A stretch of DNA of 53,593 nt from a virus (Duplodnaviria > Caudoviricetes): the IMG/VR virus record IMGVR_UViG_3300023108_000037, positions 1-53,593 of that record, one strand, 5' to 3'. Shown piece by piece: positions 244 through 3,106 of the stretch. The notes beneath the pieces were generated by a model, which worked only from the letters and a program-made list of their open reading frames with translations, did no database searches and was not told the DNA's origin. The first letter of the stretch is position 1; each line of letters opens with the position of its first letter. The position numbers were made by a program, and so were the translations under genes.

Positions 244-671
244 CAGAAACCTCGTTGGAAGTTCTGCCACTCAATAGCGTTCTTGATTTGGTAGGTTCTG
301 TTGTTAATTTGTTTCAGAATACTCTCAAGATAATTGAGCATGGCATCATGATAGTCAATCTTCAGACGAATCTTAGATAGTTGTTCGTCTGCGTCTAAAT
401 GGTAGTTAAGAGAATCTTTCTCTCTTACTTTGTATGGAAAGGGGTCGTCTTCATAGACTTCTGGATCTGCCTTTCCGTTATAATAATTTCTGCGTTCAAG
501 GTATTTGGTTTTATAAGTTTGTTCTTCCTTCTTTTTCATCAGAAGAACTGTATTATATAGTTCGTGATATTTGGCGTGTAATCTGGGAACCTTGATTGAT
601 TCGTCGTGGAGATTGTCTGGGTCAAGGATGGAGTCTTTCGACCACATCTCATTAATAATGTCTAGATTCAT
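243..671 (-). CDS. uvsY: UvsY recombination mediator
   Basis: 142 aa; LHAKY, YY-G-A and RTYQIKNAIEW motifs; lies between gp3 and uvsW. Confidence 0.93.
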   Translation of the reverse strand: MNLDIINEMWSKDSILDPDNLHDESIKVPRLHAKYHELYNTVLLMKKKEEQTYKTKYLERRNYYNGKADPEVYEDDPFPYKVREKDSLNYHLDADEQLSKIRLKIDYHDAMLNYLESILKQINNRTYQIKNAIEWQNFQRGF

Positions 672-1222
672 GAAGTAGTGGAGACTGTTTCAATATTATA
701 AATGGTATATTTGAATGTAGCTGTTGCCGTTATTGTTTGATAATCAGTGTTTGTTGCATCAAATTGAAGTCCAGAGAGAGTATATGGAAACAATCCATTA
801 AACTTCACTCTTGCAATACTATTGAACTGATTGTTCAATACTACTAGAGTACCATCACTATACTGACGATCCATGTCTTGAACACCATCTGGATCAGTCA
901 CCAGATCTTTGAAATCCTGAATGCTATTTGGAAAACCTAGTCCCCTCATCCAGTTATGCACTGTGAGATAGTTTTCCATTTTTTCATCTACAATGAACTG
1001 TAGAGTCAGATCCTCAAAAACTAATCTGTCACCAGCAAGTGGCAACTCTTTCAAATAGTTGGGTGCGTTGACTGTTCCAAGTGTCAGACCAGGCAGATTG
1101 GCAGTATTGGAAAAGAAATCTACCTTTGGGAATCTGGCAAGCGTAAAATTAAATCCTACATTGGATAGGTAATTTCTATTTTGAATTTGCCTATCAAAAG
1201 GATCTCTTCTAGGAGCAGCCAT
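668..1222 (-). CDS. gp3: Tail tube terminator / tail completion protein gp3
   Basis: 184 aa; NYLS..GF.F, ANLPGLTLG, F.VDE.MENY...HNW and ATF.Y motifs; synteny. Confidence 0.88.
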   Translation of the reverse strand: MAAPRRDPFDRQIQNRNYLSNVGFNFTLARFPKVDFFSNTANLPGLTLGTVNAPNYLKELPLAGDRLVFEDLTLQFIVDEKMENYLTVHNWMRGLGFPNSIQDFKDLVTDPDGVQDMDRQYSDGTLVVLNNQFNSIARVKFNGLFPYTLSGLQFDATNTDYQTITATATFKYTIYNIETVSTTS

Positions 1223-1244: not shown

Positions 1245-1251
1245 TATTTAT
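1245..1251 (-). promoter_or_regulatory. T4-type late promoter for gp3
   Basis: ATAAATA on the minus strand about 23 nt upstream of the gp3 ATG. Confidence 0.7.
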
Positions 1252-1257
1252 TGGCAT

Positions 1258-1283
1258 AAAAAAGAGGAGTCCTAAGACTCCCC
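1258..1283 (-). terminator. Rho-independent terminator
   Basis: GGGGAGTC-TTAG-GACTCCTC followed by TTTTTT on the minus strand. Confidence 0.85.
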
Positions 1284-1302
1284 AACACTTCCTTCACACG
1301 GA
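1258..1302 (-). ncRNA. Candidate ~45-nt small RNA (or functional 3' UTR)
   Basis: Extended -10 TGaTATAAT (1308-1316), then single-stranded CCGTGTGAAGGAAGTGTT, then the terminator; no ORF. Confidence 0.4.
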
Positions 1303-1313
1303 TTACTATTATA

Positions 1314-1487
1314 TCACATTAGAATACTCCTGCAAACACGCTTACAAGATGTTTCGTTGATGGAATCGCATTCAATCAGACACTCATAATAGTCATTGAT
1401 TTTTTGCTGTTCCAGATCGGATTCATCTACATCGGTTTCTACATGCCTCCATTCGTCTAACTGGGCTCTTGATAATAGATTGTGCAT
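1314..1487 (-). CDS. 57-aa twin-Cx3C small protein (not in ORF track)
   Basis: Manual translation MHNLLSRAQLDEWRHVETDVDESDLEQQKINDYYECLIECDSINETSCKRVCRSILM; SD AAGGAG at 1494-1499; own upstream -10 box and downstream terminator. Confidence 0.85.
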   Translation of the reverse strand: MHNLLSRAQLDEWRHVETDVDESDLEQQKINDYYECLIECDSINETSCKRVCRSILM

Positions 1488-1556
1488 TTCAAACTCCTTT
1501 TTGTGGACAATAACAAAGGAAGTTCATTTACTGCATTGGACTATTCCCAATTCTGT

Positions 1557-1606
1557 ATTATATAGTCTACTTTGTGTTAATTCACTAACATTTGTGTCAT
1601 TGTTAC
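1557..1606 (-). promoter_or_regulatory. Sigma70-type -10 box with upstream palindromic operator-like site
   Basis: TATAAT at 1557-1562; TGTTA-N6-TAACA at 1575-1590; direct repeat TTTGTGT at 1571 and 1591. Confidence 0.5.
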
Positions 1607-1614
1607 ATAAAGAC

Positions 1615-1639
1615 AAAAAAAGAGACCCTTTCGGGTCTC
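1615..1639 (-). terminator. Rho-independent terminator after gp23
   Basis: GAGACCC-GAAA-GGGTCTC-TTTTTTT on the minus strand. Confidence 0.92.
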
Positions 1640-1663: not shown

Positions 1664-3106
1664 TCACATAAGGTTGGCAACCTTGACTCTCTGGTAGTAA
1701 CGGTTGACACCAGGATAGACACGACCCAGACCTTGGTTATCGACATTGCCTTCAGCGAAGGGGTTGGAGATAAGACCATAACGGGTCTTAAAGCCAATCT
1801 TGGGCTGGAAGGTGTTCTCACCAACGGCACGAACCATCTGCAGGGGAACGTAGGGGCAGTAGAAGAGACCAGCATCATAGGGGCTGGAACCTTTGTAACC
1901 GACAACGTAGTACTGGTTAGCAGCACTGTTAGCAGCAAATGGGTCAATGTAGACTCTGTACTTACCGTTGATAGTACCAGCAAAGGTGTTGCCAGTGTCA
2001 TCAACGTTCAGGTTTGCGTTCAGAGCAGGGGTGTAATCAAGTACACCAGCCATGGTCAGAGCGGAAGCAACATCAGCAGAAGTCAGGATGATGTTACCCT
2101 TCCCTCTACGAGTTCTTTGTGCGATGCGGTTGGCATCTCTCTCGATCTGGAACAGAAGTCCTTTGAACTTCTCAACGGACCAACGACCGTTGGAGTCAAC
2201 GTCGAGGTCAAATGTACCTGCGGTGGCAACGTTTGCCTGAGCACCGTTCTCAGCAACCTTATAGATGGTTCTGATGACTTCACGGTTGATCTCAGCAAGA
2301 ATCTCAGTGCTGAGGATGTTTGCCAGTTCGGCTTCGGCATTCAGACCGTGGATAGCACGAAGGTCTTGTGCCAGTTCCAGGGAGTATTCTGCCTTCAGAG
2401 CACGGGACTTAGCAGTAACGGTAACTTTCTCGATCGAGAAAGCCATCTGGTTGAAGTCTTCGTTGGTGCCGTCGCCCAGAGCTTCAGCATCACCAGTCTC
2501 CATGCCTTGACCGACATTGTACTGAGTACCAATGCCTGTGGTTGTACCAGTACCAGACAGAACCGAAGGATTGGTTCCACGCTGATCACCAGTTGTACCG
2601 AAACCAACCAACTCACCGTCAAGAACTTGACCAGAGTAGTTACCACCAGTTCTGCCAGAAGCAAAGTCTCTGGTGGAGGAGAATGCGGTATCGGGCTCGT
2701 CGAACAGAGCTTCGGTGCCACTCTGAGTGGAGTAGCGGGAACGCATTGCGAAGATCAGTCCAGTGGGACCGTTCATTGGTTGAACACCAGCCAGGTCATA
2801 AGCAACCAGGTTGGGCATAGAACGTCTGATCAGGGAGATCAGAACGGGGTCGAAACCAGCAACAGGACCTGCGGCAGCGGAATCAGCACCGAAACCACCA
2901 GAAGCACCAGCAGCGTTAGCAACGTTGGTGGGAGCCTCAGTCAGCATTCCACCGTTTTCGAAGGCAGACTGCTCACGCAGGAATCTCTCTTGGTTTTCGA
3001 GCAGAACGGCAGTAACAGCCTTTCTGTGGGAATCTTTAATAGGATCGCAGGACTCTGCATTAAGCAGAGGACCCCACTTCTCCATAAGTTTTTCGGAATT
3101 AAACAT
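1664..3106 (-). CDS. gp23: Major capsid protein gp23
   Basis: 480 aa; KWGPLL, AVLLENQE, GVQPM.GPTGLIFAMR, KSRALKAEYSLELAQDL, FQPKIGFKTRYG motifs. Confidence 0.99.
   Translation of the reverse strand: MFNSEKLMEKWGPLLNAESCDPIKDSHRKAVTAVLLENQERFLREQSAFENGGMLTEAPTNVANAAGASGGFGADSAAAGPVAGFDPVLISLIRRSMPNLVAYDLAGVQPMNGPTGLIFAMRSRYSTQSGTEALFDEPDTAFSSTRDFASGRTGGNYSGQVLDGELVGFGTTGDQRGTNPSVLSGTGTTTGIGTQYNVGQGMETGDAEALGDGTNEDFNQMAFSIEKVTVTAKSRALKAEYSLELAQDLRAIHGLNAEAELANILSTEILAEINREVIRTIYKVAENGAQANVATAGTFDLDVDSNGRWSVEKFKGLLFQIERDANRIAQRTRRGKGNIILTSADVASALTMAGVLDYTPALNANLNVDDTGNTFAGTINGKYRVYIDPFAANSAANQYYVVGYKGSSPYDAGLFYCPYVPLQMVRAVGENTFQPKIGFKTRYGLISNPFAEGNVDNQGLGRVYPGVNRYYQRVKVANLM

Follow-up and report, generated by a model that had tools for sequence, protein, structure and literature searches.

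A conserved promoter, 16-mer and hairpin unit of T4-like cyanophages is a candidate small-RNA gene with a seed complementary to host tRNA-Val(CAC)

The viral record IMGVR_UViG_3300023108_000037 (Duplodnaviria; Caudoviricetes) of the IMG/VR collection comprises 53.6 kb, is estimated to be 25% complete, and was analyzed over its whole length (hereafter referred to as the window). As judged by the major capsid protein gp23, the closest isolate is the Synechococcus phage S-B05 (77.9% identity). The genes around the locus studied here are all read from the minus strand and succeed each other in the order gp22, gp23, a terminator, an open reading frame (ORF) for a protein of 57 amino acids (aa), a second terminator, the box AATAAATA, and the genes for gp3-like, UvsY-like and UvsW-like proteins. 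Between the end of the 57-aa ORF and the second terminator lies the element to which this report is devoted: a sigma70-type promoter whose extended -10 region (TGaTATAAT, 1316-1308) overlaps the stop codon of the 57-aa ORF, followed by the 16-mer CCGTGTGAAGGAAGTG and by a GC-rich hairpin with a run of T residues (Table 1). We propose that this unit (1258-1336, minus strand) might be a phage gene in its own right that specifies a small RNA of about 44 nucleotides (nt), whose 5' seed would pair with the host tRNA-Val(CAC); in our judgment, the chances that this reading is correct are about even.

Despite a DNA identity of ~68-74% between the 57-aa ORF of the window and the ORFs of its relatives (an alignment that, for S-RIM2, takes in part of the small-RNA unit), the 16-mer located between stop codon and terminator is identical in the window, in Syn9 and in S-RIM2. 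The second terminator is the predicted 3' end for both the small RNA and the mRNA of the 57-aa gene. Our terminator scan found two terminators, compared with 0.4 expected from shuffled sequences; an earlier note on this DNA, which had described a cassette bracketed by two terminators and an extended -10 region behind the stop codon, was correct on both counts. The available RNA data are assembled metatranscriptome contigs from four runs, in which the starts and ends of transcripts cannot be read and uncovered stretches carry no meaning. One of them (X1) covers positions 1298-1541 at low depth, and another (X8) joins the end of gp23 (1686) via 39 other letters to position 1302 and downward. The latter appears to stem from a co-occurring relative devoid of the 57-aa gene, with the seed placed in the 3' end region of gp23. 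Searches with Rfam 15 retrieved no family at the gathering score from the window region (chance-level matches only, best E = 1.1) and tRNAs only from four related loci.

Table 1. Features of the gp23 to gp3-like interval of the window, listed in the direction of transcription.
Feature	Position	Strand	Basis or remark
gp23 major capsid protein gene, upstream neighbor	1664..3106	(-)	480-aa ORF; Pfam Gp23 PF07068, E = 1.7e-147
Intrinsic terminator after gp23, GAGACCCGAAAGGGTCTC + T7	1615..1639 (stem 1639-1622)	(-)	terminator scan
TATAAT, -10-like box ahead of the 57-aa gene, putative promoter	1557..1562	(-)	read from sequence
Leader of the 57-aa gene	1488..1551	(-)	hairpin, ACUUCCUUUGU, upstream-ORF remnant, Shine-Dalgarno (SD) sequence
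Leader hairpin arms, ATTGG / CCAAT	1551-1547 / 1539-1535	(-)	
Vestigial 12-codon upstream ORF, MNFLCYCPQKGV	1527-1489	(-)	no SD; stop 1 nt ahead of the ATG
Anti-SD strand, ACUUCCUUUGU	1523-1513	(-)	
SD of the 57-aa gene, AAGGAG	1499-1494	(-)	
57-aa ORF, Syn9 gp134 family	1314..1487	(-)	phrog_665, E = 1.9e-27; ATG at 1487
Sigma70-type promoter, TTTGCA, 17 nt, TGaTATAAT	1308..1336	(-)	promoter scan, 10/12 matches + TG
Conserved 16-nt 5' seed, CCGTGTGAAGGAAGTG	1286..1301	(-)	found once in the window; same letters in Syn9 and S-RIM2
Terminator hairpin, GGGGAGTCTTAGGACTCCTC + T6, 8-bp stem	1258..1283 (stem 1283-1264)	(-)	terminator scan, fold
T4-late-promoter-like box before the gp3-like gene, AATAAATA	1245..1252	(-)	read from sequence
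gp3-like tail completion / sheath stabilizer gene, downstream neighbor	668..1222	(-)	phrog_45, E = 9.7e-40

The exact 16-mer is present in at least 119 IMG/VR contigs, a set that was selected by this very match and can consequently not measure seed conservation, and at least 115 of these contigs carry real units. Among the matches listed, four chance hits were set aside; with the window and two isolates included, this left 118 units for analysis, 96 of them distinct. The exact hits in the contigs L073, L095 and L108 were rejected as GC-rich chance matches. Forty-five of the 118 listed units follow gp134-like genes, 24 are found directly after gp23, 13 lie behind a promoter inside tRNA clusters, six abut the 3' end of a tRNA, and 30 are located elsewhere; in the six tRNA-abutting units, the seed begins 1-2 nt behind the 3' end of tRNA-Thr(UGU) or tRNA-Asn(GUU). 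The unit is single-copy in the window, in Syn9, in S-RIM2, in a complete 207-kb IMG/VR genome (G001), and in a 100-kb contig.

A sigma70-type -10 region precedes the motif in 52 of the 96 distinct units, 37 times with the TG extension, and some of these promoters match the sigma70 consensus perfectly (TTGACA-17-TATAAT). Hexamers resembling a -10 region end 6-8 nt upstream of the motif in 50 of the 96 units, compared with 0-7 such hexamers at each of the offsets outside 5-8 nt (0 to 30 examined). In 23 distinct units, the hexamer TAAATA, which we take to be the T4-type late box, ends 5-7 nt upstream of the motif. Altogether, a promoter box stands at fixed spacing in 75 of the 96 units, six more abut a tRNA 3' end, and 15 have weaker boxes only. 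The convergence of three routes (sigma70-type promoter, late-type promoter, and tRNA 3' end) onto one and the same predicted 5' end is our main argument for a functional RNA. In the window, the promoter would set the 5' end of the transcript within ~2 nt of CCGUGUGAAGGAAGUG.

On the other side of the seed, a hairpin of -8 kcal/mol or better is present in 88 of the 96 distinct units and is followed by a T-run in 75; these hairpins represent 71 distinct sequences. The fixed promoter spacing and the hairpin together give strong comparative backing to the ~45-nt RNA that the earlier note had predicted to extend from the extended -10 region to the second terminator, and the median length predicted for the RNA across units is 44 nt. 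The GC-rich hairpin and the U-run would end this RNA, and its 5' seed would be largely single-stranded; the seed is indeed predicted to be mostly unpaired (median 0.76; at least 0.7 in 58 of 84 units). Twelve tRNA-cluster units included in the hairpin count have no T-run and are followed by the next tRNA. As at least 19 of the 118 units are situated in tRNA clusters, RNase Z/E and RNase P would define the ends of the RNA there, and, judging from established tRNA processing, it would be the action of RNase P at the next tRNA that makes the 3' end. In eight of the tRNA-cluster units (L043, L049, L062, L071, L086, L112, L402 from S-SKS1, and L129), letters similar to ACCA (ACCAC, ACCAT, ACACT) come after the hairpin without T-run, at a distance of a few nt from the next tRNA, mostly tRNA-Gly(UCC), so that the arrangement resembles a tRNA acceptor end.

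Read as its reverse complement, the 16-mer CCGTGTGAAGGAAGTG matches nt 25-40 of tRNA-Val(CAC) without a single mismatch, also in Synechococcus WH7803, a host of many of these phages. The matched region begins with the last base of the D-stem and nt 26, takes in the anticodon stem on its 5' side and the entire anticodon loop, and ends two bases into the 3' strand. In most units, the complementarity extends to 17-20 nt; position -1 of the seed is occupied by T in 73 of 96 units and by A in 23, and the T would pair with A41. A scan of prokaryotes with one genome per species returned tRNA-Val(CAC) genes on the antisense strand for 92 of the 119 matches listed. Five picocyanobacterial genomes contain one perfect site each, and the next-best site in these genomes, with two mismatches, is a word of the tRNA-Val(GAC) genes. 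By an arithmetic estimate, the odds that a given 16-mer is by chance antisense to a stretch of the ~41 host tRNAs are ~1e-6. The predicted dimer of the unit RNA and the tRNA has an energy of -62.1 kcal/mol, compared with -16.0 and -27.2 kcal/mol for the two RNAs alone (sum -43.2), in an energy model that disregards tertiary structure and modifications. When the 41 tRNAs of WH7803 were compared with 1.27 Mb of cyanophage DNA outside called tRNA genes, a sample biased towards loci of the unit, nothing convincing beyond tRNA-Val(CAC) emerged as another anti-tRNA seed; the other matches were isolated ones, consisting of 14-nt words and of two stretches (15 and 19 nt) reminiscent of a T-arm.

WH7803 possesses CAC, GAC and UAC isoacceptors for valine. 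Several phages carry a tRNA-Val(UAC) gene of their own (the Syn33, S-RIM12, Syn1 and S-CAM1 records; L004 and L052); in L004 and L052, this gene lies downstream of the unit at a distance of ~100-120 nt. This phage tRNA would escape the RNA because its anticodon arm (CACCTCCTTTACACGG) differs from the complement of the seed at two positions. A two-mismatch hit in S-CAM1 was rejected as a unit, as it represents the antisense strand of the tRNA-Val(UAC) gene of this phage. In the 7.6-kb viral IMG/VR contig L054, the exact 16-mer match resides inside a tRNA-Val(CAC) gene of the contig itself, with the targeted anticodon arm.

With its 5' seed, its terminator and its length of ~44 nt, the unit has the anatomy of a classical base-pairing small RNA, and it might in principle produce a real small RNA that regulates one or several host or phage mRNAs in trans by pairing via less than the full seed, for instance at CUUCCUUCAC sites, in which case the tRNA match would be incidental or secondary. 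That only 13-15 of the 16 positions are kept in variants from phage isolates fits such a role, as does the leader of the 57-aa gene in the window, which itself offers eight Watson-Crick and three G-U pairs to the seed. However, the perfect site in WH7803 is the tRNA only, its sole two-mismatch site is the tRNA-Val(GAC) word, and its three-mismatch sites number 19 versus 21 for a reversed control; nor does the window contain a second seed site with up to three mismatches. Neither the low odds of a chance tRNA-antisense 16-mer nor a complementarity of usually 17-20 nt is expected if mRNAs are the partners, and the distribution of the unit tracks that of the tRNA. We therefore regard a primary role in mRNA regulation as unlikely.

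This distribution was examined in whole records of 28 phage isolates, 18 of them Synechococcus phages and 10 isolated on Prochlorococcus (three records give no host). The unit is present in 12 of the 18 Synechococcus phages versus none of the 10 Prochlorococcus phages (one-sided Fisher p = 0.0006, a value that overstates independence because the phages of the panel are related). Seven Synechococcus phages carry the exact unit (Syn9, S-RIM2, Syn19, Syn33, S-SM1, S-SSM5 and ACG-2014d), and five carry variants in a proper promoter context: S-SM2 and S-SKS1 deviate in the first two nt of the seed, S-B05 in the last two, S-WAM1 in one internal base, and S-RIM12 by a deletion. These variants suggest a 14-nt core, GUGUGAAGGAAGUG. 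No unit was found in S-CAM1, S-PM2, S-RSM4, Syn1, S-SSM7 and ACG-2014f; hits with two or three mismatches in P-SSM2, P-SSM7, P-HM1/2, S-PM2, S-RSM4 and S-SM1 (a second site) lack a promoter or terminator context and were scored as absent. On the host side, the tRNA site is found in 122 of 201 genomes of the WH7803 family (at most one mismatch, nearly all exact). By a hand count according to listed genome size, 108 of 117 genomes of at least 2.0 Mb have it, compared with 14 of 84 smaller ones, and in five small low-GC relatives of WH7803 only tRNA-Val(GAC) and tRNA-Val(UAC) were found.

A tRNA with C at position 34 decodes only the G-ending codon, which for tRNA-Val(CAC) is GUG. GUG accounts for 61.5% of the valine codons (46.4 per 1000) in 160 kb of sampled WH7803 sequence, compared with 4.6% (3.6 per 1000) in the window, as counted after crude ORF picking; when the sense codons compared are ordered by host/phage ratio, GUG comes fourth, and by absolute difference it comes second. 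From the features described above, we infer that the small RNA would accumulate in infected cells and pair with tRNA-Val(CAC), either mature or as a precursor. Pairing would open the anticodon arm and thereby sequester the tRNA or mark it for cleavage, and the result would be a selectively weaker decoding of GUG, the main valine codon of the host that is nearly unused by the phage. A codon-selective handicap on host translation would be the most economical consequence. The full proposal, i.e., a dedicated anti-tRNA RNA that arises interchangeably from an early or a late promoter or through tRNA processing and that disables tRNA-Val(CAC), thereby handicapping the GUG-rich host and sparing the GUG-poor phage, is offered tentatively, and we rate its probability as clearly below one half.

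Several points weigh against a small RNA directed at the tRNA and, in particular, against its suggested effect. The codon contrast comes from a crude count, and the low use of GUG by the phage is not specific for valine because G-ending codons are generally avoided in the window; they account for 2.5-7% in all four-fold families, except for CUG with 25%. Furthermore, the tRNA-Val(UAC) of WH7803 could still decode GUG by wobble. A folded and modified tRNA is a hard target, and both properties lie outside the energy model used. Because the promoter class varies between sigma70-type and late-type, timing would be non-uniform, which fits poorly with an early shut-off of the host. The unit is dispensable, since six of the 18 Synechococcus phages do without it; five others have altered seeds, the IMG/VR set is silent on conservation by the way it was chosen, and the relatedness of the isolates weakens the host contrast. 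Assembled metatranscriptome contigs cannot reveal where transcripts start or end. Finally, the seed precedes an ORF instead of a hairpin in a few loci (S-WAM1, L011 and L120), and its core, GAAGGAAGUG, resembles an SD sequence.

This last point leads to another interpretation of the motif, namely a ribosome-binding or leader module, a standby site, or a decoy that captures the 16S ribosomal RNA (rRNA) by its 3' end. In S-WAM1 the motif is found 4 nt ahead of an ATG, and in L011 and L120 an ORF with its own SD follows a few nt behind it. In seven loci (L362, L363, L366, L376, L377, L380 and L384), a partial motif, (A/G)GTGTGAAGGA, comes after the box TATAAATA behind the terminator of a gp134-like gene, 8 nt upstream of the start of the gp3-like gene, and part of the seed seems to act there in addition as an SD-bearing late 5' leader. 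The great majority of the units are built differently: 88 of the 96 go directly into a hairpin, 75 with a T-run and no ORF. In addition, the predicted duplex of the seed with the 3' tail of the WH7803 16S rRNA amounts to -8.3 kcal/mol, compared with -29.9 kcal/mol for the tRNA arm, and an SD-like function leaves unexplained the seven 5' bases CCGUGUG as well as the two positions that separate the CAC tRNA from an anti-SD match. We consider it improbable that the motif as a whole serves the ribosome in this manner.

The unit might also be an element that acts at the level of DNA or has no RNA target at all, be it a mobile cassette, a relic or recombination patch of a tRNA-Val gene, or an attP-like block. 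Phage attP sites can share identity blocks with host tRNA genes, as in the cyanopodovirus P-SSP7 and the tRNA-Leu gene of its host, and the unit DNA likewise shows exact identity with part of a host tRNA gene. Here, the identity amounts to 16-20 bp (nt 25 to ~43), keeps a strict spacing to a promoter, and is followed by a terminator. We rejected an integration core on the grounds that the identity covers nt 25-40, or ~24-43 at most, without reaching the 3' end of the tRNA, and that no integrase is nearby (the flanking ORFs encode gp23, the 57-aa protein, and the gp3-like and UvsY-like proteins). The flanks of the motif do not resemble a tRNA either.

For a mobile cassette, the location of the units at module borders in variable regions, their many genomic contexts and the numerous copies in tRNA clusters could be cited, along with the 16-bp identity to a host gene. 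Promoter-plus-stem-loop composites have been reported to act as shuffling points in T4-like phages (PMC2839356, PMC4122927). PMC4122927 presents promoter-early/stem-loop elements (PeSLs) as repeat sets in the order terminator, then promoter, preferentially in hyperplastic regions of T4-like phages. Like the PeSLs (PMC2839356, PMC4122927), the unit combines a promoter of sigma70-like consensus with a stem-loop bordering variable small ORFs. PeSLs, as portrayed there, come in series, whereas the unit has one copy per genome, follows the order promoter, 16-mer, hairpin, and has the 16-mer as its defining part. We dropped an identification as a PeSL once the window, Syn9, S-RIM2 and G001 had each turned out to contain a single copy; single-copy occurrence excludes a dispersed repeat of this type. 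Two types of promoters as well as tRNA 3' ends keep a fixed distance to the motif, which is difficult to account for unless an RNA begins there, and we judge a purely DNA-level role unlikely on these grounds.

The 57-aa gene upstream of the unit encodes a protein with two CX3C motifs (CLIEC and CKRVC) after a conserved LDEWRH segment; it has no match in Pfam, and phrog_665 is a family of unknown function. A tblastn search found this protein family in 361 phage records, 16 of which are named Prochlorococcus phage. The gp134-family gene is likewise placed 3' of gp23 in Syn9 and S-RIM2, and at a different location in S-CAM1. In homologous loci, TATAAT followed by ...ACAGAATT occurs at the position equivalent to the -10-like box of the window, a box that our promoter scan did not call because it lacks a good -35 region. 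Most genes of the family have a strong SD (GAGGTGG) for an out-of-frame upstream ORF that starts ~53 nt 5' of their ATG and overlaps it, as exemplified by L001 (2435-2534; Syn9) and L003 (about 2410-2540); its product begins with MIP... in many loci. This upstream ORF may serve in translational coupling or encode a leader peptide, and the pyrimidine stretch in the leader of the window is the decayed counterpart of the GAGGTGG-ATG upstream ORF. Downstream, the assignment of AATAAATA rests on what we presume to be the late-promoter consensus; most related units have CTAAATA or TAAATA 3' of their terminator. The Syn9 counterpart of the gp3-like gene carries the annotation T4 gp3-like.

The earlier note had interpreted the interval as a riboregulated cassette: the strand ACUUCCUUUGU of the leader would fold onto the SD of the 57-aa gene until this hairpin is opened, and translation switched on, by the 3' RNA or by a long-range 5'-3' pairing. 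The elements it listed are in place: the small ATTGG/CCAAT hairpin stands where it was described, ACUUCCUUUGU and the SD are present, the anti-SD helix appears in the minimum-energy folds, and GUGAAGGAAGU at 1297-1287 can indeed pair with the leader at 1513-1523 through eight Watson-Crick and three G-U pairs, a duplex of -12.0 kcal/mol that is reached by a fraction of 0.05 of shuffled leaders. The burial of the SD fares less well, as the fold of the 86-nt leader (-14.2 kcal/mol) is no better than that of shuffles (mean -13.15 kcal/mol; z = -0.35; 61 of 200 as good). The 8-mer ACTTCCTT occurs four times in the window versus 2.55 times expected.

The note had itself named missing conservation of the ACUUCCUUUGU/GUGAAGGAAGU pair across homologous loci as evidence against its model, and this pair is not conserved. 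In loci with a unit 3' of a gp134-like gene (44 distinct, 10 of which were dropped for an unfit start-codon pattern), ACTTCC is found in three of 34 distinct leaders, namely those of the window and of the near-identical contigs L039 and L121, and the duplex between seed and leader beats 95% of shuffles in one of the 34. Other leaders have the strong GAGGTGG-ATG upstream ORF instead. A sample of 80 gp134-like loci collected by protein only (66 distinct) points in the same direction: 60 of the 66 have a bare terminator with no motif within ~110 nt downstream, four have the exact motif, and two have it with one change. In S-CAM1, too, the motif is absent behind the gp134-like gene. Conversely, the unit is common without the 57-aa gene, i.e., after gp23, in tRNA clusters and elsewhere. 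As 60 of 66 loci lack the motif and ACTTCC is confined to three of 34 leaders, the gp134-like gene and the motif are separate modules, and the circuit is not conserved. The 57-aa gene thus seems to be an independent module that merely has its terminator in common with the small RNA. A role of the 3' RNA as a dedicated activator of this gene is contradicted by these data, and the cassette model, largely refuted by the very comparison named for it, now appears highly improbable.

With the candidate tRNA-directed small RNA as the favored interpretation, a comparison with known systems is instructive. Type I small RNAs from 3' untranslated regions (3'UTRs), such as DapZ and MicL of enterobacteria, are transcribed from a dedicated promoter that lies within the final part of the gene upstream. 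The unit resembles them in that its promoter overlaps the end of an upstream ORF (the stop codon of the 57-aa gene, or gp23 in relatives), in its terminator common with the mRNA, and in the short predicted RNA with a conserved unpaired seed. It departs from the DapZ/MicL type by a seed at the extreme 5' end, a predicted partner that is a tRNA rather than an mRNA, predicted additional production of the RNA from late-type promoters and by tRNA processing, and its setting in a virus-infected cyanobacterium. Small RNAs also arise from tRNA transcripts, as illustrated by 3'ETS-leuZ of Escherichia coli and by the stable species 1 and 2 RNAs of the phage T4 tRNA cluster. The units in tRNA clusters, which either directly follow the 3' end of a tRNA or have a promoter on one side and a tRNA on the other, are comparable; unlike these RNAs, the unit is free-standing elsewhere, and its RNA would be antisense to the body of a mature tRNA and not a sponge derived from a spacer. 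Non-coding RNA elements as such have precedents in cyanophages, for PMC9964418 and PMC12197685 mention an antisense RNA in S-PM2 (CfrI) along with motifs predicted through Rfam (wcaG, manA, glnA and PhotoRC), and no others. The unit would be one more such element of T4-like cyanophages; in contrast, CfrI and the Rfam motifs are cis-antisense or cis-regulatory structured leaders, and the unit stays below every Rfam 15 gathering score. The full-text literature that we searched describes neither this small RNA nor any antisense RNA by which a phage targets a host tRNA; the start-site tables for Syn9 (Doron et al., 2016) may list a start here.

T4-like cyanophages are among the most abundant marine viruses, and their take-over of the host is poorly understood at the RNA level. 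If our reading is correct, the unit would be the first virus-encoded antisense RNA against a host tRNA; tRNAs would join the list of small-RNA targets, and phages would manipulate the tRNA pool by base-pairing besides supplying and cleaving tRNAs. The RNA gene would then tie together phage codon usage, phage tRNA genes and host range, the latter because Synechococcus has tRNA-Val(CAC) and the small low-GC relatives that we searched do not. Even if the link to the tRNA should be incidental, the unit provides a clean marker of module borders and promoter use in cyanophage genomes.

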